DNA of 64,000 nt, from the IMG/VR virus record IMGVR_UViG_2529292922_000010, one strand, 5' to 3'. The translations under genes were made by a program, and so were the position numbers. How positions within the stretch are numbered: the first letter of the stretch is position 1; every line of letters begins with the position of its first letter. Shown piece after piece: positions 34,709-41,858 of this stretch. Under the pieces are notes generated by a model. That model saw only the letters and a list, made by a program, of their open reading frames with translations. It had not been told where the DNA came from and did not search any database. The DNA is from a virus (taxonomy: Duplodnaviria > Heunggongvirae > Uroviricota > Caudoviricetes).

Positions 34709-34943
34709 ATGGCTTCAAATCCGTACGGCGAAGCATAAAAACGCGATTTGTTCCGCTCTGATTCCCAATGAGGCAAAAGCCTTCTTTCACCTTGATAGCC
34801 TGCAAGTTGTCGAGTTCACCGCTGGTTACACGGCTATCGAACTCTTTGCGGCTTATTAGCTCCATCTGCATCTGACGACTCCAAACAAATGCCCATTGAA
34901 GGGCGATGGCTGAATGGTACCGAAAATACGACATAAAAAACAA
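34587..34943 (-). CDS. hypothetical protein upstream of hrdC
   Basis: 118-aa ORF following C1 operator; overlaps hrdC 5' region so start/extent uncertain. Confidence 0.35.
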
Positions 34944-34958
34944 TATTTATTAGAGCAA
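34941..34958 (-). promoter_or_regulatory. C1 operator
   Basis: AATATTTATTAGAGCAAT. Confidence 0.65.
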
Positions 34959-35040
34959 TTTTGCAATAGCTGAACCCCATGTAGACCACAAACAACCTGA
35001 GCTAAAATAACGAAAATCAGAGCAAATAATTGGTGATGAC

Positions 35041-35325
35041 GTGGCAAGTATTGCAACAAAAGACAGCATTTGTTCGGGGCACGGAGGATTCCCATCCAGG
35101 CCTCCTGTAGAGAGTGAACCACTACTTAAAGTCAACGGAGTCGAAGTGTTAGTTGATGGTAAGCAATATGCACAGCATACCGATGGAAACAGTACGCACG
35201 GTGGGCAAGCTATATCAACCAGGGCATGGTTTACCGTCAATGGTAAAGGGATCGTATGCGTTGGTGACCCTGTTTCATGCGGATCTACCGTAGCGTCCGG
35301 AGACGGCCTGGTTCAGGTAAGTTAG
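35041..35325 (+). CDS. PAAR-like domain protein
   Basis: 94 aa; SICSGHGG...STHGGQ...CVGDPVSCGS pattern reminiscent of PAAR spike-tip proteins. Confidence 0.4.
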   Translation: MASIATKDSICSGHGGFPSRPPVESEPLLKVNGVEVLVDGKQYAQHTDGNSTHGGQAISTRAWFTVNGKGIVCVGDPVSCGSTVASGDGLVQVS

Positions 35326-35333
35326 GAGATATC

Positions 35334-36122
35334 ATGCTGGAAAAAGACTACCAGTTATCCGCATATAAAAAATTGGCCGCCGCCGGTGGGATGAAAACAC
35401 CTGGTGCCATAACATCGGCACGAAACAGTGCTAACACAGCAAAACTGCTTGCAGAAGAATTGACCGGATTAATTCTGGATACAATTGTCTATCCCGACAC
35501 TATTACCAGCTATGTTTCAACGATCAGAACAACCACAACCGGCTTAACGAACATTGGAGAACTGGCAACTAAGCACGCGGACCTGTTGGCTGGTTATGCA
35601 GATCTGTCAATGCTGCTTCAACTCGATATTGGTTGGGATGTTTACTGCCGTGCTAATGAGCGAGAAGTATCAGAACTGCCGATCTCTATTGCCATTGGTG
35701 ATGTGACTATTACTAAATCGCTTGAGGACGCTGTAAACGCGCTTAATACATCAAGTTTAGTCGCTGCTATGGGGGAGATTAACCAGACCCTTAACACTGG
35801 CTCAGGAAGCTCGTCAGGCTCTGGTTCAGGCGGCGGCACTGCCACTCCCCCACCAGCACTAACAGAAGAGCAAATTGAATCTCTGAAAGTAGCAACTGAA
35901 CAGTTTGGGGTTGTATTCAACCAGACAACAGCGCCCACAACTGCGTTACAACAGCAGTATGAACGAGCGAATGAAAGCGCCAATGTAGCCATAACTGCTT
36001 ATAACCATGCTATCGGTACTGCGCTTGCGGAAGCATCAGCAAATAAGGCCAGCACAGCCAGCGCAGTTGCTGCTTTGGTTCCTGATTCTGTTCTTGATGA
36101 ATTAAACAAAGCGGCACAGTAA
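35334..36122 (+). CDS. hypothetical protein with Ser/Gly-rich linker
   Basis: ORF 35277..36122, start taken at MLEKDYQ with RBS GGAGAT. Confidence 0.45.
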   Translation: MLEKDYQLSAYKKLAAAGGMKTPGAITSARNSANTAKLLAEELTGLILDTIVYPDTITSYVSTIRTTTTGLTNIGELATKHADLLAGYADLSMLLQLDIGWDVYCRANEREVSELPISIAIGDVTITKSLEDAVNALNTSSLVAAMGEINQTLNTGSGSSSGSGSGGGTATPPPALTEEQIESLKVATEQFGVVFNQTTAPTTALQQQYERANESANVAITAYNHAIGTALAEASANKASTASAVAALVPDSVLDELNKAAQ

Positions 36123-36584: not shown

Positions 36585-36750
36585 CCACCCTGCCCCCAAA
36601 AGTGCATTTATGTGCAGAATGCCAGAGTTTAGCAGTGAATATTTCGATGATCTGCCAGCGTATATCCTCGATACAGAAACGATGCTGATGGGGATTAACA
36701 GGAAGAATCGCAACGTTAATGATTACAACCGCGCTATCAGCGGTAACTAA
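36499..36750 (+). CDS. small proline-rich lipoprotein overlapping the previous gene in another frame (o-spanin-like)
   Basis: MFASAFLLTLSGC lipobox; overlaps 3' end of the 36162 gene by about 85 nt. Confidence 0.35.
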   Translation: MFASAFLLTLSGCSGSRSANLTPTPTKVNHPAPKSAFMCRMPEFSSEYFDDLPAYILDTETMLMGINRKNRNVNDYNRAISGN

Positions 36751-37267: not shown

Positions 37268-37308
37268 GCTGTAAGCCGCGCCGTTCATGGCCTGAAACGG
37301 GATCAACA

Positions 37309-37412
37309 TTGACTATACGCGATTTTATGTTGACTGTGTGCGATTTTATGTTGACTGCACGCGATTTATTGTTGACTATACGCGACAGAAACGTTGACTG
37401 TACGCGATTTTA
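37309..37412 (+). repeat. incC iterons (five ~19-bp direct repeats, TTGACTNTNNGCGATTTTA)
   Basis: five tandem repeats at roughly 21-bp spacing upstream of repA. Confidence 0.8.
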
Positions 37413-37488
37413 GAGCCTGAATATTCACAGCTGTTGATAACAGTCATCTAAATTAACGCCAGGCCGCGCCACACATGGAGAAACCACG

Positions 37489-38373
37489 ATGCCGGAAGAA
37501 AGTAAAGGCTTCCTTAGCGTTGAAGAAGTTGCAGGAAATACAGGAGAAATCCACAGCCTGAAGCCCAATAACAACAGCACTATACAACCTATCGCTTTGT
37601 TGCGCTTAGGTGTGTTTGTGCCAACCTTAAAATCTACCAATGTGGCACTACGTCGCGGATCGTCAGTTACTACAAACACAACGAACGCAACCGAAGAACT
37701 ATCAAGCCTTAAAATTGTTGAGCAGGAAGGCTATGAGGGAATTGAAATTCATGGCCCACGCCTGGATATGGATACTGATTTTAAGGTGTGGGTGGGCATA
37801 ACCTCCGCGTTGTTTGACTACGCACCTGATGATGACGGCATAATCACCCTGCCATTCTCCGAGTTTGCCGATCGATGCGGCTATCCACGTAAGCGCCTTT
37901 CAAAGGCGTTCCGTAAAAGTATTGATGACTCTCTGACACGCATTCAGCAGACAGTTGTCAAATTCCGCTTCCCGGCGGCAAAAGGTCATCTCAATAACAT
38001 TAACGTCAACTTGTTGGCATATAGCAGCCTGAATACCGAGCTTGATGTTATCGAGATCCAGCCGCAGAAACAGCTATCTGAACTTTACTATGTTGACTAT
38101 AAGCGAATCCTGAAGCTGAAGATGCTGGATAAGCTCGGGCGCAAAGAGACGGCCAAGGTACTGTATACATTCTTTGAGGCTCTACCCGCCAACCCGGCAC
38201 CTGTCAGCATTGAGCGCCTTAGAGCAAGGCTTAATCTCAAATCATCCGTTAGCGTGCAAAATAGCGTTATCAGAAAAGCCATGAAAGATTTGGAAGCTAT
38301 TGAATATCTTAAATTTTCAGAGATAAAAAACGGCAGGAAAATCGGCTTCCAGATCCATAAGCGCAATCCATAA
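37489..38373 (+). CDS. repA: plasmid replication initiator RepA
   Basis: 294 aa; conserved segments TIQPIALLRLGVFVP and GPRLDMDTDFK resemble P1 RepA; flanked by iterons. Confidence 0.85.
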   Translation: MPEESKGFLSVEEVAGNTGEIHSLKPNNNSTIQPIALLRLGVFVPTLKSTNVALRRGSSVTTNTTNATEELSSLKIVEQEGYEGIEIHGPRLDMDTDFKVWVGITSALFDYAPDDDGIITLPFSEFADRCGYPRKRLSKAFRKSIDDSLTRIQQTVVKFRFPAAKGHLNNINVNLLAYSSLNTELDVIEIQPQKQLSELYYVDYKRILKLKMLDKLGRKETAKVLYTFFEALPANPAPVSIERLRARLNLKSSVSVQNSVIRKAMKDLEAIEYLKFSEIKNGRKIGFQIHKRNP

Positions 38374-38375
38374 TA

Positions 38376-38630
38376 TTGACTATATGCGATAGCGAGAAGT
38401 TGACTATAGGCGACATTCGTTGACGCTGGTGGATTTTTGCTGGCGTCAATATTCTGCAAGTCGCTATTGAGATGGCTTTTAGGGTCATTTCATCGCGTAT
38501 AGTCAACGTTTCTCCCGACAATATCTTACATAGTCGATCTTTGGTGGAGTTAAATCGACTACAGTCAACTTTTGACTGTAGTCACATCGCGCATAGTCAA
38601 CTATTCACATTAACTTTCGCGTATAGTCAA
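38376..38630. repeat. incA iterons (about nine copies in both orientations)
   Basis: TTGACTATATGCGAT, TTGACTATAGGCGAC, CGCGTATAGTCAA, CGCGCATAGTCAA, TTGACTGTAGTCACA and others. Confidence 0.8.
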
Positions 38631-38665
38631 CATTTGCGCGGTTCTCATCAAGCAGTGGTATTGAT

Positions 38666-39475
38666 ATGCAAGAAGAGAAACAACACTACCTCTACGTTCT
38701 GGTGCCGGAGAATGGAGATACTTTTAAAATCGGCATTTCATGTGGTCCATTGGCACGGTTTAAAGGGCTACAAGTGAGTCCCGATTTTGCGCTTTCACGG
38801 GTCTATCGTGGTACGCGTTTGGCAATAGTTAATCTTGAGCGGGCTTTACACGCAACCTTTTTCCCCTGGAATGCGCCGTGGGAGAAAAGCGCTGGTGGCG
38901 GGCATACTGAATGGTTTACACGAGAGTGTCTTGATAAGGTTTTGGCTCATATCGAATATCTAAATGATATGTGGGGAGGGATTCTCGAGCGCATTAAGTC
39001 GAATGATTTACTTCAGCGTCCAGTAGATGCTGCCCGCTCTTTCGAAAAAGAGCTGGATGTTACTTCTATCGTGACTTTCAAAGATGACGCAGGAATGAGG
39101 GACGTGGCTTATGTCTCCATATCTGGCTATGAACCGGACGCGATCCGCGCTCAATGTGAATTGCTGAAAGCAATGTTTATGCTTCGGACTAAATATTCCT
39201 GGGAGACAAGGCGGGTGTGCTTCCCTATGGAAGAGTTAACCGCCACCATTGATTCCCAGCTTTACCACGATAATCCAGAGAAGTTTTTTAGCCTTTTAGC
39301 CGGTAATGGGCTTAACTGTGTGTCCGGGCTGGGGCGAAGTAGAATCCAACATGCCTCGCTCTTCGGTCCCTTCTTTTACGATCGACACGGGTACTTTGAG
39401 GCTGAACTTCCGGCGCTTACGCGTGCCATAGATACTATCGATTTCGAACGATTATTCGCTGCTCTTAGCAAATAA
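38666..39475 (+). CDS. T5orf172 (GIY-YIG-like) domain protein with unknown C-terminal domain
   Basis: N-terminal YLYVLV...FKIGIS...RFKGLQ...ERALHATF...GGHTEWF pattern typical of T5orf172/MUG113 domain; own terminator downstream. Confidence 0.55.
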   Translation: MQEEKQHYLYVLVPENGDTFKIGISCGPLARFKGLQVSPDFALSRVYRGTRLAIVNLERALHATFFPWNAPWEKSAGGGHTEWFTRECLDKVLAHIEYLNDMWGGILERIKSNDLLQRPVDAARSFEKELDVTSIVTFKDDAGMRDVAYVSISGYEPDAIRAQCELLKAMFMLRTKYSWETRRVCFPMEELTATIDSQLYHDNPEKFFSLLAGNGLNCVSGLGRSRIQHASLFGPFFYDRHGYFEAELPALTRAIDTIDFERLFAALSK

Positions 39476-39482
39476 CACTGAT

Positions 39483-39504
39483 GCCCCTGAACGGGGCTTT
39501 TTTG
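39483..39504 (+). terminator. rho-independent terminator
   Basis: GCCCCTGAACGGGGCTTTTTTGT. Confidence 0.75.
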
Positions 39505-39643
39505 TGCCCTCCTTGTAACTCTCAATCGTGCAAAATGAACCAAACATGCAGAGAATGCTATGTACAAGCATCTGTGCATACATTATTATTTTATGCAGCA
39601 TTTTTAATTAAATTCAAAAATACAGCATAAAGGATGGCTTTCG

Positions 39644-40840
39644 ATGAGTGATTCCAGCCAGCTTCACAAGGTTGCTCAAAGAGCAAACAGAATGCTCAAT
39701 GTTCTGACTGAACAAGTACAGTTGCAAAAGGATGAGCTACACGCGAACGAGTTTTACCAGGTCTATGCGAAAGCGGCACTGGCAAAATTGCCTCTACTGA
39801 CTCGAGCGAACGTTGACTATGCCGTGAGTGAAATGGAAGAAAAGGGTTATGTTTTCGATAAACGCCCTGCTGGCTCTTCAATGAAATATGCGATGTCAAT
39901 TCAGAACATCATTGACATATATGAACATCGCGGAGTGCCAAAATACCGGGATCGCTACAGCGAAGCGTATGTGATTTTCATCTCCAATCTTAAAGGCGGT
40001 GTGTCAAAAACTGTATCGACGGTTTCTCTGGCGCATGCAATGCGTGCTCACCCTCATCTTCTGATGGAAGATTTAAGGATTCTGGTTATTGACCTTGATC
40101 CGCAATCTTCAGCAACGATGTTTTTAAGCCATAAACACTCTATTGGTATCGTAAACGCAACATCTGCACAGGCTATGTTGCAGAATGTAAGCCGTGAAGA
40201 GCTGTTAGAGGAGTTTATTGTTCCTTCTGTTGTACCTGGGGTTGACGTTATGCCTGCGTCGATTGACGATGCCTTTATTGCATCCGATTGGAGAGAGCTG
40301 TGCAATGAGCATCTACCGGGTCAAAACATCCATGCAGTCCTGAAAGAAAATGTGATTGATAAGCTGAAGAGCGATTATGACTTTATCCTCGTTGATAGTG
40401 GTCCTCACCTTGACGCCTTCCTGAAAAATGCTTTGGCCTCGGCCAATATACTGTTTACACCTCTGCCGCCTGCAACGGTTGATTTCCACTCATCGCTTAA
40501 ATACGTTGCCCGCCTTCCTGAGTTGGTAAAACTCATTTCGGATGAAGGCTGCGAGTGCCAGCTTGCGACTAACATTGGTTTTATGTCCAAGTTGAGTAAC
40601 AAGGCAGACCATAAGTATTGCCATAGCCTGGCTAAAGAAGTGTTCGGTGGGGATATGCTTGATGTCGTCCTCCCTCGCCTTGACGGTTTTGAACGCTGCG
40701 GCGAGTCTTTTGACACTGTTATTTCAGCTAACCCGGCAACGTATGTTGGTAGTGCTGATGCATTGAAGAACGCGCGAATTGCCGCGGAAGATTTTGCTAA
40801 AGCAGTTTTTGACCGTATTGAATTTATCAGATCTAACTGA
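39644..40840 (+). CDS. parA: partition ATPase ParA
   Basis: 398 aa; deviant Walker A KGGVSKT; N-terminal HTH extension; matches recalled P1 ParA. Confidence 0.9.
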   Translation: MSDSSQLHKVAQRANRMLNVLTEQVQLQKDELHANEFYQVYAKAALAKLPLLTRANVDYAVSEMEEKGYVFDKRPAGSSMKYAMSIQNIIDIYEHRGVPKYRDRYSEAYVIFISNLKGGVSKTVSTVSLAHAMRAHPHLLMEDLRILVIDLDPQSSATMFLSHKHSIGIVNATSAQAMLQNVSREELLEEFIVPSVVPGVDVMPASIDDAFIASDWRELCNEHLPGQNIHAVLKENVIDKLKSDYDFILVDSGPHLDAFLKNALASANILFTPLPPATVDFHSSLKYVARLPELVKLISDEGCECQLATNIGFMSKLSNKADHKYCHSLAKEVFGGDMLDVVLPRLDGFERCGESFDTVISANPATYVGSADALKNARIAAEDFAKAVFDRIEFIRSN

Positions 40841-40856
40841 GGAGTAAGAAACCCCC

Positions 40857-41858
40857 ATGTCAAAGAAAAACAGACCAACAATTGGGCGAACCCTTAATCC
40901 TTCAATATTAAGCGGATTTGATAGTTCTTCAGCCTCTGGCGATCGAGTCGAGCAGGTATTCAAGTTATCAACTGGTCGCCAGGCCACATTTATTGAAGAG
41001 GTAATACCTCCGAACCAGGTAGAAAGCGATACCTTTGTTGATCAGCATAACAACGGGCGTGACCAGGCATCTCTTACGCCAAAATCATTAAAAAGTATCC
41101 GAAGCACTATTAAGCATCAGCAATTTTACCCTGCAATAGGTGTTAGACGGGCTACAGGGAAAATTGAAATTTTGGATGGTTCCCGGCGTCGAGCTTCTGC
41201 CATCTTAGAGAACGTAGGGTTGCGGGTTTTAGTCACGGACCAGGAGATCAGCGTTCAGGAAGCGCAAAATTTAGCGAAAGACGTTCAGACAGCATTGCAG
41301 CACAGCATTCGAGAAATAGGTCTGCGTTTGATGCGAATGAAAAATGATGGGATGAGTCAGAAGGATATTGCAGCCAAAGAAGGGCTGTCTCAGGCGAAGG
41401 TCACGCGTGCTCTCCAGGCAGCGAGTGCTCCGGAAGAATTAGTTGCCCTTTTCCCTGTGCAGTCGGAATTAACCTTTTCGGACTACAAAACGCTTTGTGC
41501 TGTTGGCGACGAAATGGGGAACAAGAATTTAGAGTTTGATCAGCTTATTCAAAACATATCCCCGGAAATAAACGACATCTTATCCATTGAAGAAATGGCC
41601 GAAGATGAAGTTAAAAATAAAATCCTGCGCTTGATAACAAAGGAAGCCTCACTACTCACGGATAAAGGTTCTAAAGATAAGTCCGTAGTTACTGAATTAT
41701 GGAAATTTGAGGACAAGGATCGCTTTGCAAGGAAGCGCGTGAAAGGCCGTGCATTTTCTTATGAGTTTAATCGACTTTCAAAAGAGCTACAGGAAGAACT
41801 CGACAGGATGATTGGGCATATCCTTAGAAAGAGCCTCGATAAAAAGCCGAAGCCTTAA
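40857..41858 (+). CDS. parB: partition protein ParB
   Basis: 333 aa; ParB/Spo0J-type box (GSRRRAS) and HTH; directly followed by parS. Confidence 0.85.
   Translation: MSKKNRPTIGRTLNPSILSGFDSSSASGDRVEQVFKLSTGRQATFIEEVIPPNQVESDTFVDQHNNGRDQASLTPKSLKSIRSTIKHQQFYPAIGVRRATGKIEILDGSRRRASAILENVGLRVLVTDQEISVQEAQNLAKDVQTALQHSIREIGLRLMRMKNDGMSQKDIAAKEGLSQAKVTRALQAASAPEELVALFPVQSELTFSDYKTLCAVGDEMGNKNLEFDQLIQNISPEINDILSIEEMAEDEVKNKILRLITKEASLLTDKGSKDKSVVTELWKFEDKDRFARKRVKGRAFSYEFNRLSKELQEELDRMIGHILRKSLDKKPKP

Follow-up and report, generated by a model that had tools for sequence, protein, structure and literature searches.

We report that a nuclease-type open reading frame (ORF) in a P1-like phage-plasmid is the last element of an alternative replicon cassette that stands in the place of the P1 replicon. 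The sequence is the virus record IMGVR_UViG_2529292922_000010 (Caudoviricetes), analysed as one stretch of 64,000 nucleotides (hereafter the window), and the ORF (38666-39475, + strand; 269 amino acids) begins with an ATG that is the first start codon past an in-frame stop. It encodes a T5orf172 domain of the GIY-YIG superfamily with intact motif residues, lies at the cassette edge, is strictly linked to its replicon, is dispensable and evolves fast. The reading that we favour, at a probability a little short of even, is that the product is an accessory endonuclease of the T5orf172 branch, free-standing and site-specific and of homing or competition type, encoded by the last gene of an exchangeable p0111 cassette. 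In architecture and position the ORF is a variation on the theme of T5orf172 homing and origin-directed nucleases; its nuclease activity, DNA binding, target and outcome are inferred. Newly reported here are its position at the cassette's right-hand edge in two lineages of P1-like elements, its fast evolution, the knockouts found in ~18% of loci and the winged-helix-like, low-confidence models of its C-terminal half.

The p0111-type cassette in place of the P1 replicon

Comparison of the window with P1 by blastn gave 96% identity up to position 37282 and 99.3% from 39542 onwards, with no match between. The intervening 2259-bp block (37283..39541) replaces the 1500-bp incC-repA-incA-spacer block of P1 and corresponds to a replicon type already known from P1-like phage-plasmids as 'p0111'. 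Its left edge lies within oriR, just past the DnaA-box/GATC part. Its right edge falls 66 nt past the end of the ORF and 19 nt upstream of the -35 element of Ppar, the P1-type par promoter (39561..39589, +), which begins 19 nt into the resumed P1 homology and is a promoter-like site coinciding with the annotated Ppar of P1 (L001 5017-5045). The P1-type parA-parB operon that follows, outside the cassette (39644..41858, +; Pfam HTH_54 and AAA_31), is 99% identical to that of P1.

Repeat searches and Pfam profiles resolved the interior of the cassette. Five direct iterons of the TGTTGACTATACGCGA type, spaced 21-22 bp apart, occupy the origin and promoter region upstream of repA (37307..37407, +). 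They are followed by repA' (37489..38373, +), which encodes a Rep_3-family initiator of 294 amino acids with Rep3_N and Rep3_C domains, by two forward iterons directly 3' of the repA stop (38374..38413, +), and by four inverted iterons (38493..38635, - strand), a control array analogous to incA whose last member ends 30 nt 5' of the ORF start. This is the order of the P1 replicon, which likewise runs from the DnaA-box/GATC segment through five direct iterons, repA, and forward and inverted control iterons to Ppar-parA-parB. However, the cassette has six downstream iterons where P1 has nine, and it holds the nuclease gene where P1 carries a 190-bp spacer. RepA' is 42% identical to P1 RepA and 84-85% identical to the RepA proteins of two further elements, L003 and L002, and the TGTTGACTATACGCGA iterons match those of P1 in neither direction.

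The first-pass annotation had held that the incA iterons of P1 lead directly to the par promoter, and that the ORF had apparently been inserted into this gap. The statement about P1 is correct: in canonical P1 (NC_005856) the last incA iteron (L001 4826) is followed by the gene-free spacer and then by Ppar, the P1 annotation has no coding sequence between incA and parA, and P1, which matches the window only outside 37283-39541, has no orthologue of the ORF at this position. The insertion itself does not hold. The iterons upstream of the ORF are not incA, and when the incA-parA interval was aligned with P1 it proved gene-free there, but the entire replicon block was non-homologous. Since RepA is only 42% identical, the iterons differ and the whole block differs, a simple insertion into the P1 incA-parA gap was rejected.

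The cassette block is 98-99.9% identical in phages RCS47, SJ46, phi456 and JL22, and about 400 PLSDB plasmids carry it, every one with the ORF and hundreds with identical edges. Searches of 5.8e9 and 1.84e9 proteins confined the ORF family to two lineages. Among the 5.8e9 proteins there was only one truly divergent full-length relative, P0004 (44% identity), which occupies the same slot (repA, ORF, parA, parB) in L003, a divergent P1-like element; the GTDB species representatives yielded a single Escherichia locus.

A corresponding exchange is visible in this second lineage. The L056 plasmid has an L003-type backbone (ParA 97% and ParB 92% identical to L003) and carries an IncY-type cassette without the ORF. 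The block that is non-homologous between L003 and L056 starts past the DnaA-box/GATC segment and ends 84 nt past the ORF stop, its edges being as in the comparison with P1. The ORF is therefore present or absent at one locus in two backbone lineages (the window against P1, and L003 against L056), and it is the whole cassette that is polymorphic, not the ORF alone. Because the block edges are shared by the two comparisons, 'IncY without ORF' and 'p0111 with ORF' are, as judged from the alignments, alternative cassettes in two P1-like lineages, with the ORF marking the right edge. IncY-type elements with a P7-type par operon also run from incA straight into parA with no intervening gene.

The phage-plasmid L002 has a RepA 85% identical to that of the window and the same 5+2+4 iteron layout, of which the five direct iterons upstream of repA are shared by L003 and L002. 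Its replicon has no ORF, and the ORF thus lies outside the minimal replicon.

Two further iteron-like sequences were noted in the cassette. A 16-mer inside repA (38091-38106), conserved in position in L002 and L003, agrees with the reference iteron at 15 of 16 positions and is a possible RepA-binding site within the gene. Between the forward and the inverted downstream iterons lies TTGACGCTGGTGGATTT (38421-38437), likewise kept in L002 and L003, which starts like a p0111 iteron and has a GCTGG-GG core that bears a faint resemblance to the core of the P1/IncY iterons, with fewer than 14 matches in 19.

Domains, alleles and expression signals of the ORF

The first 105 residues (38666..38980, +) form a nuclease domain of the T5orf172/GIY-YIG type, in agreement with the first-pass annotation. 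A Pfam search placed T5orf172 (PF10544) at residues 8-85 with 26.8 bits (gathering cutoff 20; E=7.6e-6), the L003 orthologue scored 28.0 bits against the same profile, and the MUG113 score of the ORF was below that family's cutoff. The motifs YLYVLV, FKIGIS, RFKGLQ, ERALHATF and HTEWF were all found. Leaving its own family aside, this domain is most closely related to T5orf172 endonucleases from Vibrio phages (28-32% identity), and in an alignment with them Y8, Y10, K21, G23, R31, E58, H62, G79, E82 and D90 are invariant; Y10, K21-I-G23, R31, E58, H62 and E82 are also invariant when T5orf172 proteins of Cupriavidus are aligned. The catalytic-type residues of the superfamily are thus present. 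The Arg and Glu of the ORF correspond to the catalytic pair discussed for ICP1 Odn, in which the E180A mutation abolishes cleavage and from which the role of the Glu is deduced (PMC8263062). The first 100 residues also match phrog_681 ('endonuclease'). Beyond the known family, profile searches with the N-terminal domain returned only truncated alleles and one fragment of 85 amino acids; NCBIfam models gave no match to the ORF, and none of the PADLOC-DB v2 defence-protein families matched it at E<=1.

The Cupriavidus proteins just mentioned, WP_071040652 and WP_084085758, are GIY-YIG proteins encoded in tandem on the megaplasmid of Cupriavidus sp. USMAA2-4. They resemble the ORF product in being plasmid-borne and in their N-terminal T5orf172 domain, which is 33-34% identical, including the following helix, and they measure 276-320 amino acids. 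Their C-terminal halves, however, are unrelated to it in sequence, their genes are not beside rep or par, and they are uncharacterised.

Residues 106-269 and the stop (38981..39475, +) make up a fast-evolving orphan domain, probably of the winged-helix DNA-binding kind. The absence of a recognisable motif noted at the first pass was borne out. For this half (~106-269), no sequence relative was found in the word-indexed database, Pfam, NCBIfam, PADLOC or the PDB sequences, and an exhaustive HMMER search of 1.84e9 representatives returned matches to its own family and fragments thereof only. The CapR, DUF723 and DUF4379 zinc-finger repeats gave no Pfam match in the ORF at E<=1, and it has no CxxC motif; as positive controls, the Vibrio-phage relatives matched CapR (E ~4e-24) or DUF723 and DUF4379.

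Structure prediction, which the first-pass annotation had proposed for the C-terminal domain, gave low-confidence models with winged-helix-like matches. Three fold searches agree that winged-helix DNA-binding domains dominate the C-terminal matches, all of them sub-threshold. With the full-length model, Foldseek placed a Rep WH1 domain first (E=0.1, probability 0.77), and all other matches with a probability of at least 0.3 were SLX1 or iteron initiators. WH1 domains of iteron initiators took ranks 1, 3, 10 and 13 in this search and ranks 6, 15 and 24 with the C-terminal-only model, for which generic winged-helix proteins (a CRP-like factor, TcpK and ORC/Cdc6) scored equal to or above the initiators. 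The models indicate that the C-terminal half is likely a winged-helix DNA-binding domain; its resemblance to initiators is only suggestive. The possibility that this domain was copied from the neighbouring RepA or from P1 RepA was rejected at the sequence level, as comparison with RepA' and P1 RepA gave E>2 in BLASTP and a probability of 0.13% in hhalign with the RepA profile, with no Rep match in Pfam.

Allelic variation was followed in 45 loci from IMG/VR and GTDB, of which 44 could be evaluated for the ORF (one ends at a contig end). The ORF is intact in 36 of the 45 loci and disrupted in eight of the 44 (~18%). A nonsense mutation at codon 112 is common to five loci, including L017 (NC_013370, pO111_3, the p0111 reference plasmid), another at codon 228 is found in L045 (phage-plasmid SJ46) and a third, at codon 68, in one locus; an IS200/IS605-family element with TnpA and TnpB is inserted at about codon 98 in L051 (4300-6000). 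Plasmid pO111_3 and SJ46 are accordingly natural knockouts of the ORF. The repA, parA and parB genes are intact except in one locus with likely assembly errors (repA is intact in 44 of 45). Since three independent nonsense alleles and one insertion occur with repA, parA and parB intact, and since L002 has no ORF, we conclude that the ORF is dispensable for maintenance.

Among intact alleles, the ratio of nonsynonymous to synonymous diversity (piN/piS) was 0.33 for the ORF, compared to 0.02 for repA, 0.00 for parA and 0.05 for parB. The ORF value exceeds those of the neighbouring genes by a factor of 6 to more than 30, yet in each of its two domains the ratio remains well under 1. In the comparison of the window with L003, identity is 84% for RepA, 89% for ParA, 80% for the capsid protein and 67% for ParB, against 44% for the ORF, where the nuclease domain reaches ~70% and the C-terminal half 32%. 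The ORF is therefore weakly constrained, yet purifying selection acts on it and it has stayed intact across a long divergence.

The ORF is a genuine gene and no chance reading frame, because it matches PHROG 2876 ('unknown function') over its full length (E=8e-193), is carried by the ~400 plasmids and is under purifying selection. Its existence was already known and annotated, yet it is uncharacterised: RefSeq names the product 'GIY-YIG nuclease family protein', and the paper on phage JL22 lists the gene as 'gp57', "unknown protein" (PMC9603915). Our literature search found no publication that discusses the ORF and, in the library searched, none that joins T5orf172 with phage-plasmids.

Of the ribosome-binding site and strong terminator credited to the ORF at the first pass, the terminator was confirmed and the ribosome-binding site turned out to be weak. 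A promoter/terminator scan located an intrinsic terminator at 39483..39503 (+), made up of GCCCCTGAACGGGGC followed by TTTTTT, with a stem of five G-C pairs, a 5-nt loop and the T run; it possibly also ends a repA-ORF transcript. The putative Shine-Dalgarno-like sequence is GTGGT, 6 nt 5' of the ATG (38655..38659, +), and the divergent orthologue in L003 has this pentamer as well, 5 nt ahead of its ATG. No terminator-like site was found by the scan between repA and the ORF, and transcription of the ORF by read-through from repA is possible.

A spurious reading frame of 101 amino acids (38472-38777, +) runs through the inverted iterons, which it translates as repeated 'AYSQH'. Through the same artefact (L003 8001-8123), P0004, the L003 orthologue, is called with a start 41 residues too early.

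A proposed role in homing or competition, and the alternatives

Phage-plasmids of the P1 type frequently carry genes for resistance and virulence in E. coli and Salmonella. We know of no explanation yet given for the frequent switching between the two P1-like replicon types. If the ORF product cuts IncY-type relatives, this would offer a mechanism by which replicons switch, P1-like elements exclude one another and p0111 spreads, and nucleases at boundaries of exchange, together with origin-directed nucleases, would extend from lytic vibriophages to plasmid replicons. If it has no such activity, the ORF stays an annotated accessory gene.

Given the intact nuclease motifs, a fast-evolving and probably DNA-binding second domain, the position at the edge of an exchanged module, the narrow distribution and the sporadic decay, a homing or competition endonuclease would fit the ORF best. 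In such a scheme the C-terminal domain would bind a specific sequence in a related P1-like genome that has an IncY-type cassette and no ORF, and the nuclease domain would cut near the bound site. The break would then be repaired from the ORF-carrying element and, because homology to IncY-type relatives exists only outside 37283-39541, repair would copy the whole rep'-ORF cassette across. Alternatively, the rival element would simply be lost. Either outcome would favour inheritance of the cassette. As the iterons of the two replicon types do not match, discrimination between self and rival would be possible. The cassette is often exchanged: a survey of Salmonella, whose tree of P1-like elements has 193 tips, inferred 17 switches of replicon type and speaks of 'frequent switching' (PMC11165635). 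The presence or absence of the ORF at one locus in two backbones, its dispensability for maintenance and its retention in intact form also speak for this reading.

The closest parallel is with the free-standing T5orf172 homing endonucleases of Vibrio phages (ICP1 and others), which belong to the same nuclease family and, like the ORF, stand alone beside essential genes at the boundary of recombining modules; they have a fast-evolving DNA-binding part, as the ORF probably does (Barth, Dunham and Seed 2023, PMC10448857). Nucleases of this kind are known there at 'boundaries of genetic exchange' (PMC10448857). The Vibrio-phage proteins, however, consist of N-terminal CapR/DUF723/DUF4379 zinc-finger repeats and a C-terminal nuclease, whereas in the ORF the nuclease is N-terminal and is followed by the orphan domain, with no zinc finger; their genes reside in lytic phages and the ORF in the plasmid replicon module of a temperate phage-plasmid. 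The layout of the ORF, with its probable C-terminal DNA-binding domain, resembles that of I-TevI and the free-standing T4-like GIY-YIG enzymes, which have an N-terminal catalytic domain, a linker and a C-terminal domain of the helix-turn-helix type. I-TevI, with its N-terminal nuclease and C-terminal DNA-binding domain, can also act as a repressor (PMC10448857). These enzymes belong to another branch of the superfamily: T5orf172 has K-I-G for Y-I-G, and a zinc-finger linker was not detected in the ORF.

Several observations weigh against a homing or competition endonuclease. No cleavage target site was identified for the ORF. Among p0111-type P1-like elements we saw none with a clean ORF-less allele, so that there is no documented case of homing into an unoccupied p0111 site. 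As regards a signature of a sweep or of co-conversion, synonymous diversity looked lowest in the ORF, but the sliding-window profile had no valley centred there. The ~18% knockout rate is also expected of a decaying passenger. The AlphaFold model of the full-length protein is poor, with a predicted local distance difference test (pLDDT) score of 60, and confidence is lower for the C-terminal half alone (pLDDT 49.7, ~50); no fold match to a DNA-binding domain was significant individually (best Foldseek E=0.1). Finally, the promoter scan found no consensus promoter between the iterons and the ATG of the ORF.

Among the alternatives to a homing or competition endonuclease, the one that survives best, and which we still consider unlikely, is an origin-directed nuclease like ICP1 Odn (Gp88; PMC8263062). 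A diverged Rep WH1-like winged helix would here recognise the iterons of rival IncY elements and the nuclease would destroy their origin, so that the ORF would be an incompatibility weapon and not a homing gene. There is a precedent, for in Odn a T5orf172 domain is joined to the DNA-binding domain of an initiator (PMC8263062), and fusions of this kind have arisen repeatedly (PMC10448857). The ORF likewise joins T5orf172, with the catalytic Glu conserved, to a second domain that is perhaps related to initiators; it lies directly beside a Rep_3 initiator and its iterons, those of the IncY and p0111 types are fully distinct, and its setting would resemble that of Odn, which acts where elements with exchangeable, modular replicons are in conflict. 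The high ranks of initiator WH1 folds in the full-length Foldseek search also speak for it, whereas with the C-terminal-only model generic winged-helix proteins match as well or better. The binding domain of Odn is an N-terminal RepA_N domain 42% identical to the RepA of its target, whereas the C-terminal half of the ORF has no sequence similarity to RepA' or P1 RepA, its domain order is reversed, and its likeness to initiators is structural, weak and of the Rep_3-type WH1 kind. Were this reading true, the ORF would be a weapon that removes or converts rival P1-like phage-plasmids and drives IncY/p0111 switching in Escherichia and Salmonella, and would represent the first such system in competition between plasmids, beyond the conflict of phage and satellite.

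Second in rank, and improbable, is a functionless passenger, the relic of an old homing endonuclease or insertion that hitch-hikes with the successful p0111 replicon and slowly decays. It would account for the disruption of eight of 44 loci by independent events, for a piN/piS that far exceeds that of the neighbouring genes and for the tiny family, but it fits less well with a ratio that stays well below 1 in both domains, with a reading frame and a full set of motif residues preserved between lineages at 44% identity, and with the intact state of most alleles.

Phage-plasmids carry defence cargo, and a single-gene anti-phage or anti-plasmid effector, a nuclease activated by infection that degrades the DNA of the invader or of the host, would be in keeping with a nuclease domain joined to a fast-evolving second domain in an accessory, sporadically lost gene. 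The ORF nevertheless matches no PADLOC or NCBIfam model, has no partner genes, is found at a fixed position in the replicon cassette and never in the variable cargo regions, and has an extremely narrow distribution of two lineages among 5.8e9 and 1.84e9 proteins. We therefore place defence third among the alternatives, as a rather improbable one, and the evidence favours homing or competition over it.

Least probable of all, and indeed quite doubtful, is a domesticated DNA-binding regulator that would sit close to Ppar or to the iterons of its own cassette and adjust replication control or the expression of par while cutting DNA hardly or not at all, after the manner of PLE CapR or the repressor mode of I-TevI: although relatives of T5orf172 homing endonucleases do act as repressors (10.1101/2020.11.28.402263; PMC10448857), and the ORF, 30 nt past the control iterons and ~85 nt before Ppar with no terminator separating it from repA, could be co-transcribed with repA and regulated by RepA, the conservation of all nuclease motif residues over long divergence would be unexpected were catalysis dispensable, knockouts are common and their plasmids maintained (SJ46, pO111_3), the L002 and IncY replicons function without the ORF, and its constraint is far weaker than that on repA and parA. 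CapR is itself related to T5orf172 homing endonucleases and serves in conflicts of one element with another, but it is essentially the zinc-finger DNA-binding part, whereas the ORF is without that domain and has kept the nuclease motifs.

Further observations on related elements

The locus L002 corresponds to NZ_CP085065.1 73521-82668 and is part of an E. coli plasmid of 94 kb that carries tail and transglycosylase genes. Its flanks had no match in the phage collection, hence no right-hand junction was obtained, and it may represent an undescribed group of phage-plasmids. In phage phi456, OR339795 40474-40788 is annotated as 'terminase small subunit', an annotation to which our searches lend no support. 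Relative to the window, 1313 bp are inserted at position 36741 (the mlp/upfA junction) in at least one related locus from IMG/VR. No other stretch comes near the upfC/upfB segment (34800-36100) in diversity among p0111-type elements: its nucleotide diversity (pi) is 0.05-0.09 compared to ~0.01 across rep and par, and it contains several small indels.

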